From: Minisyncoccia bacterium
GTDB taxonomy: Bacteria > Patescibacteriota > Minisyncoccia > Phycocordibacterales > Phycocordibacteraceae
Direction: 5' to 3'
Length of the DNA: 64,000 nt
Assembly (NCBI GenBank): GCA_038228545.1
Contig: JBBRPE010000002.1
Coordinates: 22,426-86,425, forward strand
The notes under the pieces were generated by a model, which searched no databases, was not told where the DNA came from, and saw only the letters and a program-made list of their open reading frames with translations. Positions 3,502-21,661 of this stretch are shown piece after piece (positions within the stretch are counted from its first letter, which is position 1; each line of letters opens with the position of its first letter). The position numbers and the translations under genes were made by a program.

Positions 3502-3549
3502 CCGCCCTTCGACGCTCCTGACTATCTAGTACCACGTGCTTACAACTTG

Positions 3550-3590
3550 CTCGCCGTAGTCCCACCTTGGGATTGCGGCGAGTTTTTATA
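3550..3590. terminator. intrinsic terminator hairpin (CTCGCCG...CGGCGAG) followed by TTTTTAT; convergent between flotillin and FNR-like gene
   Basis: Inverted repeat plus T-tract read directly. Confidence 0.5.
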
Positions 3591-5100
3591 CAAATCCCGG
3601 GAAATAGTCGGATTTTATGTGCGACAGTGGCAATCCGAGTTCATGTAGTGTTTTTTGAAACGCGACCACCATAGCGCGCGGACCGGAAATGTAGAACATG
3701 CGCTCACGATAGTCAGGTATCTCACGCTTAATGAGTTCAGCGTCAATGAGTCCGGCATAGGACCCCGGGAATGTTTGCGTATCGTTTGAAAGAGCGTAGA
3801 TGGTCTTCATACCAAGTTCGATACGAGCTCGCTCAAATACGTCATAGTACGCAACTTCCTCGACTGTTTTATTTGAGTAGAGCAAAACCGCATCGCGCTT
3901 CTGTTTGCGGTCGAGCATCGAGCCCACCATAGCTCGGAACGGTGTAACACCGATACCACCTGCAATAAAAGCAACTTTCCTTGACTCTTTTTCAGGAAGC
4001 GTAAAGTCCCCCGCAAGGTGCGCAGCCGTAATCGTATCCCCTGCCCTAAGTTCCATGAGTTTCTGTTTGAAACTCGAGAGCTGTGCTCCGGTCTTCACCG
4101 CAAGACGCAAATTCTTTTCTGTCGGGGAAGACGCGATGGTGAAGTAGCGTCGATTTCCTTTATTGTCCGTTCCTTTTCCTTCAGGAATAGTCCACTCAAG
4201 GTATTGGCCCGGGTAGAATGAATGTTTTATGGCGGGTGCAAATACAAACTCAACTGTATCTTTCGCCAACTGATTCTTTTCTGTGAGCGTGAGCATGAAA
4301 CGGCCTTTTGGACTGATTGCGTACACGAACACATTACCAAGAAGAAGAGCGAGTTCCGGTGTGAAATAGAACGAACCTATATGTATAGCGGGTGCAAACC
4401 AAATACCGACGAGTATGCCGTATGCGATACGCATCGAACGAGTCGGTGGCATGGTAGCCGGCTCCGTAAGCATGGCAAACGCCAGGAAGAAGAACGAGGA
4501 ATGTATGAGTGTGGTCCACACCGCATGGAGCGGATCGGTGTTTGTCGTGAACGCAATAGTGAGGAGCGAGGCTGCGGTAAAGGATAGGAACAAATCGAAT
4601 CGCTGAATCTTACGGACAATGAGAAGACCACCGAGAACAATGACAGCCATAAGAGGTAGGTTTCCAGCGACCCACCAGCTTGCGCCGTGCATGAACACGA
4701 GCGAAGAGACAACGACAGCAAACGCTGCAGGATTAAATACGTGTTTCCCGTTAATCGCGAAGATGTACTTCGACGCCATGCCCCACACACCTATGAGCGC
4801 GAGAAGCAGTGAACCCATGAGATCGCCCGGAGTAACCGGTGTCACGATGAGAGCCAAAATGAGTGCCGTTATGTAAAGTGAGGCAGTACCCGGAACGGCG
4901 TGCCAGACACGCGCAAATATAAAATTAGTCAGCCAGGAAGAAGCAATGAGTATCGCAACTGAGTACCCGATAGCAAACGGCGAATACGAGAGAATATGGA
5001 AAAGACCGAGAGTACCCGCAAGCACAAGAAGCGCAATGAGGTAATACAAAACGACGCGATACATCGTTATACGGTTCAAGATTGAGTCTATGTAATTCAT
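3586..5100 (-). CDS. membrane-bound FNR-type oxidoreductase: N-terminal polytopic membrane domain (~8 TM) fused to FAD/NAD(P)-binding ferredoxin-reductase-like domain
   Basis: RRYFTIAS (RxYS FAD motif), GGIGVTPF (NAD(P) motif), multiple hydrophobic helices N-terminally; last gene of ApbE/FMN-bind operon. Confidence 0.7.
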   Translation of the reverse strand: MNYIDSILNRITMYRVVLYYLIALLVLAGTLGLFHILSYSPFAIGYSVAILIASSWLTNFIFARVWHAVPGTASLYITALILALIVTPVTPGDLMGSLLLALIGVWGMASKYIFAINGKHVFNPAAFAVVVSSLVFMHGASWWVAGNLPLMAVIVLGGLLIVRKIQRFDLFLSFTAASLLTIAFTTNTDPLHAVWTTLIHSSFFFLAFAMLTEPATMPPTRSMRIAYGILVGIWFAPAIHIGSFYFTPELALLLGNVFVYAISPKGRFMLTLTEKNQLAKDTVEFVFAPAIKHSFYPGQYLEWTIPEGKGTDNKGNRRYFTIASSPTEKNLRLAVKTGAQLSSFKQKLMELRAGDTITAAHLAGDFTLPEKESRKVAFIAGGIGVTPFRAMVGSMLDRKQKRDAVLLYSNKTVEEVAYYDVFERARIELGMKTIYALSNDTQTFPGSYAGLIDAELIKREIPDYRERMFYISGPRAMVVAFQKTLHELGLPLSHIKSDYFPGFV

Positions 5101-5846
5101 ATAGTTGTATACGCGCTAAATCCACTCGTTTGGGTGGCAATGCCATCCTTGGTAATACTGTACCCCTCAAATCCGTCAGTGCGTTCAAGAAAGTCGATTC
5201 CTTTCTCTCCCATGGCGAACGCTGCAGTCGCTAGAATGTCCGATTCAAGCACGTCGCCGCCAATGACGGTGACGCTCACCACAGTGTCGAGTGCATCGCC
5301 TGCATCGTGTGGGTTATAGATATGTGCGCCCCGCACGTACGAGCCTGACGTCGCAATTCCCTTTCCTTTCGGATACACCACTTTGACTATCTCTTCGCGA
5401 TTAAAGGGATTACGAATACCAATACTCCACTCGCCTCCCCCCGCATTCATTCCTGAAACAGCGATGTCGCCAGCTGCCTCGACCATAAAATTCTGGTGTC
5501 CACGTTGTGCAAGAAGAGCTGCAGTGTTCTTAATAGCCCATCCTTTTACAACACCTGAGGGGTCAATCGTCCTGTTCGGTTGATGTATGTCAAAGTATCC
5601 TTCCGTTTCCCTTCTTGCCTTCTCTGCGAGAGCGAAGACTACTTTCACGGGCTCGCTCCAGTTCGATTCTTTTATTTCTCCACGATTAATGCGAGATATC
5701 TCACTATCAAATTTGTAGGTACTGAAGCGAGTATCTATTTCACTCAGATACTCGAAGGCCGCAGTGAAGGATTCTTCGGAAAGATTCGCATCAACTATTT
5801 CTATGGATATGGGCATTCCCATAATGTCGGTGCGAGTCTGTTTCAT
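5097..5846 (-). CDS. apbE: FAD:protein FMN transferase ApbE (no signal peptide evident)
   Basis: ApbE family motifs (MGMPISIEI..., SGVVKGWA, ATSGSY.R); starts directly with conserved core, no lipoprotein signal. Confidence 0.85.
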   Translation of the reverse strand: MKQTRTDIMGMPISIEIVDANLSEESFTAAFEYLSEIDTRFSTYKFDSEISRINRGEIKESNWSEPVKVVFALAEKARRETEGYFDIHQPNRTIDPSGVVKGWAIKNTAALLAQRGHQNFMVEAAGDIAVSGMNAGGGEWSIGIRNPFNREEIVKVVYPKGKGIATSGSYVRGAHIYNPHDAGDALDTVVSVTVIGGDVLESDILATAAFAMGEKGIDFLERTDGFEGYSITKDGIATQTSGFSAYTTI

Positions 5847-5854
5847 GACAGGTG

Positions 5855-6361
5855 TTAGGCTTTTGCTTTTGCGAGTGCACTTGCGAGCGACTGATTAAAT
5901 GCGGGACTGGTATCAGAAGCTCCGGAAATAGCATTCACATTCGCGTTTTGTGCTGAGATTGCCTCACGAATAAGCATGGGGAGTGCTTGCTGATTTATTT
6001 CGACGGAAGTATCACGGTCGTTTGGATACTGCAGAACCTTCACGTTCGTAAGCTTACCGCCTGAGATAACCGCAGCGACCTGAATATTTCCATAGTAGGC
6101 ATCTGCAACGCTTCCCGTGTAGGTGCCATCACTATACTGACCAGCATGCTTTGGTTTCGTTGCTACGGGTGTAGGTGACACCGGTTTAGAAGTAGGAGTA
6201 CTTGTCGTGGTATTCGCTTGCGCGGCAGTCGAAGACGTTTTAATCGAAGTAGTAACACTATCAGTAAATGCGGCATCTACGGGCGTAGTGTTTGAACGCT
6301 GCAGGAATACATAGCCGACAGAAGCCACAATAAGGACTGCTGCGAGTAGGAACTTCTTCAT
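5855..6361 (-). CDS. FMN-binding domain protein with N-terminal TM anchor/signal and Thr/Ser/Pro-rich linker; flavinylation-type motif ISGASDT
   Basis: FMN_bind-like segment GTYTGSV...NAISGASDTS (xGA[ST] motif as in NqrC/RnfG); start chosen at MKKF (6361). Confidence 0.75.
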   Translation of the reverse strand: MKKFLLAAVLIVASVGYVFLQRSNTTPVDAAFTDSVTTSIKTSSTAAQANTTTSTPTSKPVSPTPVATKPKHAGQYSDGTYTGSVADAYYGNIQVAAVISGGKLTNVKVLQYPNDRDTSVEINQQALPMLIREAISAQNANVNAISGASDTSPAFNQSLASALAKAKA

Positions 6362-6371
6362 ATACCTTCTA

Positions 6372-7124
6372 TTACGGTTGTGGTGGAAGGAGTATTTCAC
6401 CGCTCATCGGGAGTGGATGCACACCGAATGCACGGATAGTACTCGTCCCGTCGTCCATATCGCCGGCTACATATACCTTCTCTCCAGCAGAGAATTGGGT
6501 TATGTCGAAATTGGACGGAAGGATAACGATGTATCCGCTCTCGTCTTGATCCGTATCCAAATCGTCGTGCTGCATACGAATTGTGGACGTACCGATTTCA
6601 GTTATCGTGCCCCGGAAAATACCACGGTCATGCGGTGCGGGTACGCGCATGTGTTCGTAGATTTCTCCGAATGGCGACGGGAGTCCTCCGTGGTCAGCCT
6701 GGTAAAGCAGACGATCGTTGACGGACGTGCCCCGATCAAGCGCGAGGCCTGCACTTGTCGCAAGCGCAAGCAAAGCAAGAAGCAGATACAGAACTGGGCT
6801 TCGGTAACCAAACTTAAACCGGCGCAACAGCGTCTCAAGAAATAGAACGAGCAGCACATCAAGGATCAAGAGTGGCCACGGGAACACGACGAAGAACGCA
6901 AGGAGCCCACGAGGACCGAACCCGAGCAGCGACTCGTGACCATTGAGCCTGAGTCCGAACAGTATGAAATTAACAAGAGCGATGGAGACTACCAGAATTA
7001 CCACCGCGACAAGACCTGCGAGAATCGTCTCGAAAGTGAAGAACAACTTGGGCCGCATATGGACACTCTTCTCACGAATTTTCGCAAGAACCGTTTCCTT
7101 TGAGCTGTGTGAGTTATGTTCCAT
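6372..7124 (-). CDS. polytopic membrane protein, putative anti-sigma factor partner of ECF sigma
   Basis: Overlaps stop of ECF sigma gene by ~10 nt; several TM helices; no recognisable catalytic motif. Confidence 0.45.
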   Translation of the reverse strand: MEHNSHSSKETVLAKIREKSVHMRPKLFFTFETILAGLVAVVILVVSIALVNFILFGLRLNGHESLLGFGPRGLLAFFVVFPWPLLILDVLLVLFLETLLRRFKFGYRSPVLYLLLALLALATSAGLALDRGTSVNDRLLYQADHGGLPSPFGEIYEHMRVPAPHDRGIFRGTITEIGTSTIRMQHDDLDTDQDESGYIVILPSNFDITQFSAGEKVYVAGDMDDGTSTIRAFGVHPLPMSGEILLPPQP

Positions 7125-7743
7125 AGGGATTGGGAGTGTCTTTATAAACCGCCGCTAGTGCGTCCTTGCCGCGCTTCAAGCGAATACCGACAGTTGAAAC
7201 CGGTACCTGAAGAATGTCGGCTATTTCTCGATAGGAAAGTTCTTCAAGGTAGTAGAGCACCAATACTTCGCGATACTTCGAGCTCACCTTCTCAAGTCCC
7301 CTATCGATAAGAATTCGCATTTCCCTTTGCTCACGCTCGGCCGGGGCCGGATCGTCATACGCCGGATGCGAAACGAGAGCATCAAAATCTATGCTAATGA
7401 CTTTCGAGCGTGAGCGCTTCCTAACCGCCGACACGAATTCATTATGAGTAATCCGATACATCCATGGAGAAAAGCGCATAGAGGTGTCAAAGCTCTGAAT
7501 GTTCTGGTAGGCGCGGAGAAACGCGTCCTGAACCAAGTCGGTAATGTCATCACGATCTGCAAGGAACTTCGTTCCGTATCGCTTAAGTTTTGCTTCGTAA
7601 CGTTCCATAAGGACACCGAATGATTCCGTATCTCCTTGCTGGACGCTACGCGCAAGCACCTCATCCGTTAGTTCGGTTGGAGTCACAGATTCTATAGTAC
7701 TAGGCGAGCTATCCATGCGCTTCTTTTCTAGTACCCCGCGCAC
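7114..7743 (-). CDS. ECF-type sigma-70 family RNA polymerase sigma factor
   Basis: Region 2 (DLVQDAFLRAYQ) and region 4 HTH (LSYREIADILQVPVSTVGIRLKRGK). Confidence 0.85.
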   Translation of the reverse strand: MRGVLEKKRMDSSPSTIESVTPTELTDEVLARSVQQGDTESFGVLMERYEAKLKRYGTKFLADRDDITDLVQDAFLRAYQNIQSFDTSMRFSPWMYRITHNEFVSAVRKRSRSKVISIDFDALVSHPAYDDPAPAEREQREMRILIDRGLEKVSSKYREVLVLYYLEELSYREIADILQVPVSTVGIRLKRGKDALAAVYKDTPNPYGT

Positions 7744-7758
7744 CTGCTGAATATTTCA

Positions 7759-8400
7759 CTATTGTCCGACAAGGAGAGAGAACAAAAAAGAGATAAGTAC
7801 TGAAAACGGCGCGGAGAAGAAGTAGCTAAAGGCGAACAGGACCGCCACAAAGGTAATAAGACCACCTTGCGCAAGGCGTGCTTCGAAATTCCGGAAGGAC
7901 ATGGCGTATTTATACGGAAGCAAACCGCGCAGGAAGGTGAAGCCGTCGAGGGGTGGAAACGGAATGAGATTGAAAAGACCGAGCGAGAGATTTACGAGCG
8001 CTATGATGCCAGCCGCCTGAGCAAAGCTCGTCATACCTGCCGAAAGCGCGATGCGCGTCACAAGTCCGAACACGAGTGCAAGGGCGAGATTCGTTGCAAC
8101 GCCCGCTATTGCAACCAAAGACTCCCCATAGCGCTGATTACGGAGGTTGTAGGGGTTATAGGGTACCGGCTTTGCCCAGCCAAAGAAGAAATGTCCGGGT
8201 GAGAGCACACCAATGAGGGGCACAATGATGGAGCCAATGGGGTCTATGTGCGGTATCGGATTGAGAGTCAGGCGCCCTGCAAGCCGTGCTGTCGGGTCTC
8301 CAAGGGCATTTGCAGCATAGCCATGAGCTACCTCGTGGATAATGATGGAGATGATAAGGGCCGCAAAGTAGAAGATTTCGATTCCAGTACCTAATTGCAT
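7759..8400 (-). CDS. site-2 protease family zinc metalloprotease (peptidase M50-like)
   Basis: HEVAHG zinc motif in TM helix, LDG motif (PPLDGF), polytopic membrane; directly upstream of ECF sigma. Confidence 0.8.
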   Translation of the reverse strand: MQLGTGIEIFYFAALIISIIIHEVAHGYAANALGDPTARLAGRLTLNPIPHIDPIGSIIVPLIGVLSPGHFFFGWAKPVPYNPYNLRNQRYGESLVAIAGVATNLALALVFGLVTRIALSAGMTSFAQAAGIIALVNLSLGLFNLIPFPPLDGFTFLRGLLPYKYAMSFRNFEARLAQGGLITFVAVLFAFSYFFSAPFSVLISFLFSLLVGQ

Positions 8401-8432
8401 ACGATTTCAGCCCATGCTAGCATGGCGGAACT

Positions 8433-19870: not shown

Positions 19871-21661
19871 TTATCCGTCGTTCACGGCACGCAACACCTC
19901 TTCAAGACTCGTCACACCCTTCGCCGCCTTATAAATACCGTCTTCAAGCATAGTAAGCATGCCTTCTTTACGTGCCTGTGCCTCGAGCTGGTCAGGAGAT
20001 GCGCTATGGAGTATCAGGTCCCGGATAGTAGGAGTAACCGTAAGGATTTCATGGATACCCATACGACTCTTATATCCGTCTTCGCATTCTGCAGATGGCT
20101 TCGGGTGATAAAACGGAATCGAGTCGAGTTTCGCGGTATCTTTCGCAAGTTTTTCGTCCTGAAGCGCCTTCATGGCCGCGTCGAAGTGGTCACTCGTCGC
20201 AACTTTGTCGCGTTCTTTTCCGTCGAGCGTGTATTCTTCCTTGTCGTCACAAAGCCGTCGTGTAAGACGTTGACCAACAATAAGACGAAGCGTCGAAACA
20301 AGAAGGAATGGCTCAACACCCATATCAAGTAGACGCGGAATTGCGCCGACGGCTGAGTTCGTGTGAATAGTTGAAAGCACAATGTGTCCCGTGAGCGCAG
20401 CGTTAATGGCGAGGGACGCTGTTTCGTTATCGCGGATTTCACCAACCATGATGACATTCGGGTCCTGACGAAGAAGCGCGCGTAGTCCGGCGGCAAATGT
20501 CATACCGATTTGCGGGTTCACCTGCGTCTGATTCACCCGCTTCATCTGATACTCAATCGGGTCTTCAATAGTCGAAATGTTCACGTCAGGGCGATTCAAA
20601 ATATCGAGTACGGTATAGAGTGTCGTCGTCTTTCCGGAACCTGTTGGACCTGAAATAAGAATGATTCCCGTCGTAGTCTTGGTAGCTTGATGGATGCGCT
20701 CCAAACTTTCTCCATGAAAGCCAAGGCCTTCGAGCGTGAAGCCCTCCCCTGTTTCGCGCAAAAGACGCATGACGATTTTTTCACCATAGTAGGTCGGCAG
20801 GAGCGATACACGGAACGACACCTTGTCGGCTTCCGTTTCCATTTTGAATCGTCCGTCTTGCGGCAGACGTTTCTCGTCGAGTTTCAGGTTTGCAAGAACT
20901 TTGATGCGCGCGGTAATGCCCGGGCCGGCGTTCTTCGGGAGTGTCATAGCGTCATGCAAAATACCATCAATGCGGTATCGCACGAGTGTGGCTTCCTCCA
21001 TCGGCTCTATGTGGATGTCGGATGCGTCCTGGATGATTGCGTGACGCAGGAGCGTATCCACAATGCGCACGATAGGCAGGTCTTCTGCCATTTTTTTAAG
21101 CTCGTCTCCCGTTACGTCCCCGCCGTCAGCATCCTTAACGAGATTAATCTTCCCCGCCTCAGTCGTAATGAGATCGCCGAATTCTTCTTTGAGAGACTTC
21201 TGATACTGCAAGAGCACGTGCTTAAGTGACTCGTCGTCCGTGAGACGCGGAGCAATTTTCAGACCAGTCTTCTTACGAACGGAATCGATTGCAACCAAGT
21301 CCTGTGTGTCGAGCATGGCGACCTCAAGCTGCGTCGCGTCCTTGCGGAACGCAACAATACTGTGTGTACGTGCTATCGGCTCAGGAATAAGCGAAAGGAC
21401 ATCGAGTGCAATTTTCTTATCTTTCAAATTCACGAACGGGATTCCAAGAACATAGGCCTTAATGCGACGAAGTGCGTCCTGTGTGAGTGCTCCGGATGAT
21501 ACCAGAATGTCACCAATGGATTGTTTTCGCTTCTTTGCTTCTTCGTCTGCAGCCTCCACGTCTTTACGTGGAACAAGCCCCGAGTCGAGGATGAATGTTT
21601 TTAGTTCAGTTTCAGATACCTGCATAGCCGTACGTACTAAAAGTATAACGCGCAACTGCAT
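19871..21661 (-). CDS. pilB: type IV pilus assembly ATPase PilB / GspE family
   Basis: T2SSE N-domain, Walker A GPTGSGKTT, Asp/His boxes. Confidence 0.9.
   Translation of the reverse strand: MQLRVILLVRTAMQVSETELKTFILDSGLVPRKDVEAADEEAKKRKQSIGDILVSSGALTQDALRRIKAYVLGIPFVNLKDKKIALDVLSLIPEPIARTHSIVAFRKDATQLEVAMLDTQDLVAIDSVRKKTGLKIAPRLTDDESLKHVLLQYQKSLKEEFGDLITTEAGKINLVKDADGGDVTGDELKKMAEDLPIVRIVDTLLRHAIIQDASDIHIEPMEEATLVRYRIDGILHDAMTLPKNAGPGITARIKVLANLKLDEKRLPQDGRFKMETEADKVSFRVSLLPTYYGEKIVMRLLRETGEGFTLEGLGFHGESLERIHQATKTTTGIILISGPTGSGKTTTLYTVLDILNRPDVNISTIEDPIEYQMKRVNQTQVNPQIGMTFAAGLRALLRQDPNVIMVGEIRDNETASLAINAALTGHIVLSTIHTNSAVGAIPRLLDMGVEPFLLVSTLRLIVGQRLTRRLCDDKEEYTLDGKERDKVATSDHFDAAMKALQDEKLAKDTAKLDSIPFYHPKPSAECEDGYKSRMGIHEILTVTPTIRDLILHSASPDQLEAQARKEGMLTMLEDGIYKAAKGVTSLEEVLRAVNDG

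Follow-up and report, generated by a model that had tools for sequence, protein, structure and literature searches.

Why does the gene of an extracytoplasmic function (ECF) sigma factor share a tight gene chain with a flavin-based redox cassette? The question is raised by a 64,000-nucleotide stretch of DNA from a Minisyncoccia bacterium (GenBank assembly GCA_038228545.1, contig JBBRPE010000002.1, positions 22,426 to 86,425), hereafter the window, in which six minus-strand genes encode an M50 metalloprotease, the sigma factor, a membrane protein that we call TMX, an FMN_bind protein, the flavin transferase ApbE and a membrane reductase that we call RED. The model that we propose, and hold to be reasonably likely, is that a known NQR/RNF-like cassette stands under a sigW-like ECF sigma factor, in a predicted unit running P1-sigma-TMX-P2-FMN_bind-ApbE-RED-hairpin. 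According to this model, promoter P1 would drive the sigma gene and the co-translated TMX, which would act as a membrane anti-sigma factor or sensor and which M50 may or may not process. A second promoter at the end of TMX, P2, would drive FMN_bind-ApbE-RED, and the hairpin would end the unit. NAD(P)H would reduce the FAD of the cytoplasmic FNR-type domain of RED, electrons would cross the membrane through its RnfD/NqrB-like domain, which is without a covalent-flavin loop of its own, and they would then pass, outside the cell, to FMN_bind, which is tethered to the membrane and would carry covalent flavin, and on to an acceptor. With ApbE in the cytoplasm, flavinylation would either precede the export of FMN_bind or take a route not yet recognised. 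The features concerned are the following, the promoter calls being motif-based:

7759-8400, minus strand: M50 metalloprotease of 213 residues (PF02163, 3e-12; motifs HEVAH, residues 22-26, and NLIPFPPLDG)
7730..7758, minus strand: P1, predicted ECF-type promoter, TGAAATATTCAGCAGGTGCGCGGGGTACT, matrix score 18.7
7114..7716, minus strand: ECF (group IV) sigma factor, probable gene within the open reading frame (ORF) 7114-7743 (Sigma70_r2, 3e-17; Sigma70_r4_2, 3e-15)
6372-7124, minus strand: TMX, membrane protein of 250 residues, candidate anti-sigma factor or sensor, without Pfam or NCBIfam match
6371..6399, minus strand: P2, second ECF-type promoter motif, TGAAATACTCCTTCCACCACAACCGTAAT, matrix score 17.1
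5855..6361, minus strand: FMN_bind protein, probable gene within the ORF 5855-6400 (PF04205, 27 bits, 5.5e-6; SGAS motif)
5097-5846, minus strand: ApbE, 249 residues (PF02424, 1e-40)
3586-5100, minus strand: RED, reductase fusion of 504 residues (PF03116, 6e-10; PF00175 (NAD_binding_1), 6e-12; PF00970 (FAD_binding_6), 4e-4)
3549-3583, no strand: GC-rich hairpin of 16 base pairs between the convergent RED and flotillin genes, likely terminator

Sigma factor, promoter motifs and membrane partner

The sigma factor has the domain content of the ECF group, with Sigma70_r2 and Sigma70_r4_2 and neither r1 nor r3. It scores 104 bits against TIGR02937, above the cutoff, and among the NCBIfam models SigW matches it best (129 bits, which is under the equivalog cutoff). 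Two copies of an ECF-type motif, TGAAAY-N15-17-CGTA, are found in the chain, and the motif matches the sigW consensus of B. subtilis, TGAAAC-N16-CGTA. The first copy, P1, opens with a -35 element directly behind the M50 stop codon, and 13 nt separate its end from the sigma ATG (7716). In the second copy, P2, the -10 element shares nucleotides with the TMX stop codon, and the distance from the end of the motif to the FMN_bind ATG (6361) is 9 nt. The P1 position recurs in relatives, where 10 of 11 loci have TGAAA[CT]A-N15-17-[CTG]GTA[CGT]T ahead of the sigma gene, at a distance of 10-25 nt from its start codon; with its AAC-type -35 and CGT-type -10 elements, it has the form of an autoregulatory promoter, whose activity is predicted. 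A matrix trained solely on these sigma-upstream, P1-type sites, for which 0.28% of random 130-nt segments score 16 or more, was applied to 15 regions downstream of TMX; in seven of them it detected a second motif, scoring 17 or higher, at the end of TMX or just beyond it. The motif precedes FMN_bind also in loci L084 and L089, with a weaker variant in L091 (13.3). In L051, sigma-TMX is divergent from the cassette and the cassette has its own motif copy 48 nt before FMN_bind, and in L082 no sigma gene is adjacent, yet the motif is found before FMN_bind (16.4). The regions upstream of the window M50 and ApbE genes score 2.7 and -1.0, respectively. Since the positions of P1 and P2 recur in relatives, the redox cassette is probably a target of the ECF sigma factor in this Paceibacteria lineage, and the functional link between sigma factor and redox genes that the original prediction had drawn is now backed by two conserved motifs.

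All six co-directional genes of that prediction were borne out by the ORF listing together with Pfam and NCBIfam hidden Markov model scans, which also left its domain assignments standing, the anti-sigma label excepted. The junctions of the chain, earlier given as -10 to +16 nt, become +42, -11, +10, +8 and -4 nt when they are calculated with revised starts of the sigma and FMN_bind genes. The sigma gene probably begins at ATG 7716 rather than at GTG 7743, with an N-terminus (MDSS...) that aligns with that of L084, and FMN_bind likely begins at ATG 6361 (MKKFLL...), by comparison with relatives. Upstream, the chain is bounded by the divergent rpmB gene (L28 protein), whose start codon is separated from that of M50 by a spacer of only 32 nt (8401-8432), so that both promoters must overlap coding sequence or each other. 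This rpmB-M50 pairing is kept in L081, L082, L084 and L086. Downstream, the 16-bp hairpin at 3549-3583 likely closes the operon as a terminator and is followed by the convergent flotillin gene; no comparable hairpin occurs within the six-gene chain.

What kind of protein is TMX? The membrane anti-sigma label that it had been given was an inference rather than a domain match. No recognisable anti-sigma domain was found with Pfam or NCBIfam, no anti-sigma structure was matched by Foldseek, and the AlphaFold2 model (predicted local distance difference test, pLDDT, 84) has one short helix before the first transmembrane (TM) helix. That helix, N-terminal and cytoplasmic, is followed by three TM helices and by an acidic OB-fold on the outer side, which is C-terminal and five-stranded in the model (residues 169-237) and has weak, generic OB-fold matches in Foldseek (CcmE, CusF, RPA); this topology, with the N-terminus in the cytoplasm and the OB domain outside, is predicted from counts of loop charges. 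Its gene has the position expected of an anti-sigma factor: in all loci recovered it immediately follows an ECF sigma gene, which it either overlaps (by 11 nt in the window) or abuts, as seen in the window, L051, L084 and L086-L100. Because of this invariable coupling to the sigma gene, our best guess is that TMX is probably an anti-sigma factor or a sensor. The family comprises 3168 representatives at E<=1e-3 in a 50%-identity library and has no Pfam model; the named homologues that another protein search returned belong to Paceibacteria or Parcubacteria, and a metagenome scan with a 9-sequence TMX alignment yielded 12 loci, mostly short. With its roughly 3200 representatives, the family may constitute a new class of membrane anti-sigma factors.

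The original prediction had gone further and read M50, sigma factor and TMX as a cassette for regulated intramembrane proteolysis (RIP), in which M50 would be a dedicated site-2 protease that cuts TMX, frees the ECF sigma factor and so induces the redox genes. The sigW factor of B. subtilis is activated by RasP-dependent RIP, and the sigma factor of the window is sigW-like. Moreover, the HExxH and LDG motifs of M50 are intact, its gene immediately precedes sigma-TMX in the window, L084, L086 and L091, and the first and third TM helices of TMX have the N-in/C-out orientation that is cut by site-2 proteases. However, M50 lies outside P1 and has no motif in its own upstream region (2.7); it adjoins rpmB whether sigma and TMX are there (L084, L086, L091) or not (L081, L082); and no M50 homologue is found near sigma-TMX in L087, L088, L093, L099 and L051, nor within 8 kb of any of the 80 loci at which we found the redox cassette in genomes. 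In addition, RseP and RasP have a PDZ domain and M50 does not, RIP substrates are single-pass whereas TMX has three TM helices, and no site-1 protease is evident. A full RIP cassette thus seems rather unlikely. As M50 lies outside P1 and stays where the sigma gene is absent, its link to regulated proteolysis is tentative at most, and gene order presents it as a neighbour conserved in synteny, upstream of P1, rather than as an established member of such a cassette.

The comparison with sigW-RsiW of B. subtilis, where proteolysis is by PrsW and RasP, is instructive for the sigma factor and its partner as a whole. Common to both are an ECF sigma factor (best matching SigW in the window), a sigW-like motif, predicted autoregulation together with a co-transcribed membrane partner, and an M50 protease nearby. 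The partner differs, in that TMX has no zinc-binding anti-sigma domain and instead combines three TM helices with an OB-fold ectodomain; the protease differs, in that the window M50 is without a PDZ domain and is not consistently linked; and the targets differ, which in the window would be redox modules and in B. subtilis are envelope and antimicrobial defence genes.

Probable coupling of the sigma factor to redox genes

Could the sigma and TMX genes have been inserted between M50 and an unrelated redox cassette, in a gene-dense and reduced genome, without any regulatory meaning? The gene order of relatives can be read in that way. The six-gene order is kept in L084, a 60% relative, but sigma and TMX are missing from L081 and L082, whose RED proteins are 70-71% identical and whose loci read rpmB<-->M50-FMN_bind-ApbE-RED. 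Across the 80 genome loci, sigma-TMX is near the cassette in just one (L051, where it is divergent), the other 79 cassettes having no adjacent pair. The genes flanking sigma-TMX also vary: TMX is followed by FMN_bind(-ApbE-RED) in the window, L084, L089, L091 and probably L094, and by unrelated genes in L087, L088 and L099. Gene order alone is therefore equivocal on the coupling, and it is the DNA motifs that decide. In the window, L084 and L089 the cassette is immediately preceded by the P2 motif (by a weaker variant in L091), a motif precedes the cassette also in the divergent L051 and in the sigma-less L082, and the genes that follow P2 repeatedly encode redox proteins, namely FMN_bind, cytochrome b5 and rubredoxin. 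A chance juxtaposition is, on this evidence, quite improbable.

The redox proteins other than FMN_bind deserve attention. In L086, which has the same rpmB-M50-sigma-TMX synteny as the window, the gene after the P2-type motif encodes a cytochrome b5 that has a TM anchor and a Ser/Thr/Pro linker, and the next one a protein with four TM helices (L086:5726-6654); cytochrome b5 genes are found near sigma-TMX also in L093 and in the P0156 locus. In L095, the ORF after TMX and after the P2-type motif (L095:903-1076), which starts MPIETLAYSLYVCLECGWIYDE...PGTRWENLPDDFTC and is incomplete at the contig end, is rubredoxin-like, and would thus add a third type of redox protein to those found in this slot. 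Since the same slot can hold cytochrome b5 or rubredoxin, these arrangements point less to housekeeping respiration than to regulation in response to a redox or metal signal from outside.

Beside sigma-TMX we also observed secreted proteins that are DUF5666-like or of unknown type (L087:3622-4384, L097:342-880, L099 ~4300-5400 and, on the minus strand, L051:3880-4436). These neighbours contain His/Met/Gly-rich stretches such as GPGMGHGVMG and MPMMGKHGG, and in L087, L097 and L051 the ECF-type motif lies ahead of them. Their composition is a hint of metal binding and of a metal-related signal.

Several points weigh against the proposed model. TMX has only about 25-35 cytoplasmic residues and no recognisable anti-sigma domain. 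The motif is missing from 45 other cassette loci, so that ECF control would be lineage-specific. P2 lies 9 nt from the start codon, which implies a leaderless or nearly leaderless mRNA, and the P2-bearing loci are few and partly related by descent. Finally, an equally strong match is found elsewhere in the window, at 20651-20677 on the plus strand (score 19.9, the strongest outside the operon). We considered this match as a promoter and judged it to be a chance one: it lies antisense within a pilB/T2SSE-like ATPase gene (19871-21661, minus strand) and has no sensible ORF downstream. It follows that chance matches of such strength occur.

What is new here, to judge from gene order and motifs, is the predicted control of the cassette by an ECF promoter and the apparent interchangeability of redox effectors behind one sigma/TMX pair, besides the TMX family itself and the recognition, discussed below, that a leaderless ApbE is a family-wide trait. 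A literature search on ECF sigma factors and flavinylation in the candidate phyla radiation (CPR) returned nothing relevant. We suggest that a large, uncharacterised family of anti-sigma factors with three TM helices and an OB-fold may enable Paceibacteria to use a sigW-like ECF sigma factor as the switch for interchangeable redox modules at the surface, be they flavin, cytochrome b5 or rubredoxin, a proposal that we consider more likely, if less striking, than the route of cytoplasmic flavinylation set out in the last section.

The redox cassette and its reductase

Which redox system is it that the sigma factor would control? The module is not an unclassified variant; in its domains and gene content it is the published NQR/RNF-like flavinylation system (PMC8238504, PMC11334425), formed by FMN_bind, ApbE and RED. 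Méheust et al. (2021, eLife, PMC8238504) defined this system by a PF03116-PF00175 fusion in a flavinylation gene cluster that has ApbE and/or FMN_bind, at least one of them with a predicted secretion signal, and they counted 127 such clusters, chiefly in Actinobacteria and CPR. RED carries that fusion, with PF03116 at residues 151-262 (6e-10) and PF00175 at residues 378-482 (6e-12) of its 504 residues; ApbE and FMN_bind are encoded directly upstream, and the N-terminus of FMN_bind is MKK followed, by hydropathy, by a hydrophobic stretch. Huang et al. (2024, mSystems, PMC11334425) modelled the NQR/RNF-like complex of Ktedonobacter, the membrane subunit of which is without the flavinylated threonine of NqrB/RnfD; the RED family, too, is without the loop that carries the corresponding T187 of RsxD. 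The window system therefore shares with the published one a two-subunit architecture, in which an NqrB/RnfD-like domain fused to PF00175 goes together with a membrane-anchored NqrC/RnfG-like FMN_bind, an ApbE within the cluster, and a range that includes CPR, Actinobacteria and Chloroflexi. It differs in that the cassette lies behind an ECF-type promoter and a sigma/TMX pair, whereas the available parts of both defining papers describe no regulator.

The system is widespread. The RED family gave 4706 matches at E<=1e-10, mostly in Patescibacteria, and the scan of genomes yielded 80 loci distributed over Patescibacteria, Mesorhizobium/Kaistia, Ktedonobacteria and other Chloroflexi, Spirochaetota and Actinobacteria. 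FMN_bind, ApbE and RED follow each other in the same order and on the same strand in 46 of these 80, in several phyla (ApbE E<1e-40). In half of the 46 (23 loci), as in the window (5097-5100), the ApbE stop codon overlaps the RED start codon as ATGA, which implies translational coupling and perhaps a 1:1 association of ApbE with RED, unusual for a maturation enzyme. The system is widespread in CPR, and its place behind an envelope-stress-type sigma factor offers a first hint of when it is used. A Pfam survey of the cassette flanks (75 and 72 loci) revealed no conserved partner and no terminal reductase; the flanking genes are heterogeneous, with VIT1, Nramp, P-type ATPase, MacB and histidine kinases only scattered among them (~75 loci). 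It is plausible that the electron acceptor is a metal or another small soluble compound.

RED combines an RnfD/NqrB-like polytopic membrane domain (residues ~1-265) with a cytoplasmic FNR-type FAD/NAD(P)H domain. Its AlphaFold2 model has a pLDDT of 81.5, and the C-terminal half matches, in Foldseek, FNR-family reductases, NqrF and the dehydrogenase domains of bacterial NADPH oxidases. The FNR domain dominates such searches: phmmer with the full-length protein against PDB retrieved FNR-type domains only, and Foldseek with the full model returned no NqrB/RnfD chain in the top 50. A profile of the N-terminal domain was required to reach RnfD (8ahx_D, 1.9e-7). The motifs RRYFTIAS and GGIGVTPF are invariant across the family, and the residual flavin pocket is placed outside by loop charge counts.

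An HGAS sequence in this membrane domain had been proposed as an additional flavinylation-like site. It does not lie at the position flavinylated in RnfD/NqrB, and the loop bearing that position is deleted in RED. When E. coli RsxD (L085) is aligned to the RED family, the flavinylated T187 (SQAT) falls in a periplasmic insertion of ~75 residues that is missing from the family; S141 of the window RED aligns with the "MTSW" of RsxD, where the deleted loop begins, and the residue preceding the invariant WW varies among S, T, N, I, V and A. On the alignment and this variability together, we reject HGAS as a second flavinylation site.

How does the cassette compare with better-known electron carriers? 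With Na+-NQR and RNF it shares a homologous membrane domain (PF03116; RnfD 8ahx_D, 1.9e-7), a homologous FMN_bind subunit and an NqrF-like FNR domain. It is not a six-subunit complex of that type: the operon encodes two homologous subunits and ApbE, no further ORF in the chain matches, and NqrA/D/E, RnfA/B/C/E and the Fe-S centres are absent. The ~75-residue periplasmic loop with the covalent-FMN threonine is deleted, and electron flow is presumably one-way and outward, in contrast to the semicircular, ion-pumping path of NQR and RNF. In working principle, the cassette may be seen as a flavin-based analogue of the NOX/ferric-reductase (FRE) enzymes, including the bacterial NOX of S. pneumoniae (8qta), which the RED model matches in Foldseek at 1.2e-15. 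In both, a cytoplasmic FNR-type dehydrogenase is fused to a membrane domain that carries electrons outward. The membrane domain of RED, however, is RnfD-like and presumably flavin-based rather than a di-haem ferric-reductase domain, and RED needs a separate flavinylated subunit.

A leaderless ApbE and its predicted export-anchored substrate

The window ApbE has the fold and domain of its family: besides the PF02424 match, the core motifs DxSxxxKG, TSGSY and H(I/V)xxP are conserved in comparison with the solved ApbEs 6nxi and 4xgw, with which it aligns from about the first residue of the mature domain. The lack of a signal peptide that the original prediction had pointed out holds. The protein starts 9 residues ahead of the conserved MGM core, an in-frame stop lies 17 codons upstream, the residues encoded in between are polar with nothing hydrophobic among them, and the whole protein is without a hydrophobic or TM segment. 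A missed upstream start or a sequencing problem, once considered, does not account for this, the frame being closed upstream and the trait being family-wide: an N-terminal hydrophobic segment is absent from 59 of 59 cassette ApbEs, with ORFs taken at maximal extent, in Patescibacteria, Proteobacteria, Chloroflexi, Spirochaetota and Actinobacteria. Most of them start M[KR]xT[RK]x[LI]MGMP, six residues ahead of the core. ApbEs whose substrates are extracytosolic typically carry an N-terminal lipoprotein or secretion signal; neither the window enzyme nor any of the 59 cassette homologues has one, and there is no second, secreted ApbE within the 64-kb window. The window ApbE is also a compact form of 249 residues, which at about residues 87-90 is without a segment of ~45 residues (chain positions ~105-150) present in the enzymes of E. 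coli (4xgw) and V. cholerae (6nxi).

The FMN_bind protein, by contrast with this enzyme, appears built for export. It has a hydrophobic signal anchor after MKK, a Ser/Thr/Pro-rich linker, the FMN_bind domain and, about 20 residues from the C-terminus, an SGAS motif. ApbEs move FMN from FAD onto the Ser/Thr of [S/T]GA[S/T] motifs, and SGAS, encoded next to an ApbE gene, is of this type and a putative flavinylation site. All 49 FMN_bind partners examined have MKK with 17-20 hydrophobic residues and a low-complexity linker, and all 49 have D[IV][IV]SGA[TS] about 20 residues before the C-terminus. The predicted protein is NqrC/RnfG-like and faces outward on an N-in/C-out signal anchor. As no flavinylation site of its own is left in RED, FMN_bind is the sole predicted substrate of ApbE, and it would be outside while the enzyme would be inside. 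To judge from these protein sequences, a leaderless ApbE with an export-anchored substrate is an unexplained, family-wide paradox. In the available parts of Méheust et al. (2021) and Huang et al. (2024) we found no discussion of this mismatch in location, and the leaderless ApbE of the clusters drew no comment there (PMC8238504, PMC11334425). A leaderless enzyme is known from K. pneumoniae, whose cytoplasmic ApbE flavinylates a soluble fumarate reductase (PMC12052999); its substrate, however, is cytoplasmic, whereas the only predicted substrate of the window enzyme has an export-type N-terminal anchor.

How might the paradox be explained? A tentative explanation is that FMN is attached to the C-terminal tail of FMN_bind while this is still in the cytoplasm, before or during Sec export; the cytoplasm is where FAD is available, and ApbE has, in published work, been able to modify short unstructured tags. 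It is doubtful that ApbE has a cytoplasmic role other than the modification of FMN_bind, and more doubtful still that it leaves the cell by an unrecognised export route. The original prediction had left a choice between cytoplasmic flavinylation and a reversed, cytoplasmic FMN_bind, and of the two the latter is disfavoured: an N-out anchor that keeps the domain in the cytoplasm for intracellular redox chemistry would suit an ApbE that is leaderless in 59 of 59 cassettes and has cytoplasmic precedents such as that for the K. pneumoniae fumarate reductase (PMC12052999), but it is very improbable given the classic N-in/C-out pattern of MKK, 17-20 hydrophobic residues and Ser/Thr/Pro linker in 49 of 49 partners, the periplasmic face of the NqrC and RnfG homologues, the loop charges that put the residual flavin pocket of RED outside, and the published AlphaFold-multimer model, which docks the FMN_bind-type subunit on the outer face (PMC11334425). 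Two further candidates were discarded: Tat export of a pre-flavinylated FMN_bind, as the probable N-terminus has no RR motif in the window or in relatives, and an FMN_bind-ApbE fusion by frameshift or readthrough, as the frame offsets differ between loci.

Returning to attachment before or during export, the combined proposition that ApbE of NQR/RNF-like systems is cytoplasmic family-wide and that the flavin is added on this route is itself rather doubtful; if it were true, extracytosolic flavoproteins would have a new route of biogenesis that does without FAD export. The family-wide absence of a leader in any case challenges the working assumption that exported proteins are flavinylated outside the cytoplasm.

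Beyond the hairpin at the end of the chain, a small membrane protein is encoded at 1220-1750 on the plus strand of the window, followed by a flotillin/Band-7-like protein of 574 residues, up to 3501, whose Ala/Glu/Lys-rich central region brings the local GC content to 0.64. The Band_7 gene lies after the reductase on the same strand in L084 and is convergent in the window, which suggests a local inversion.

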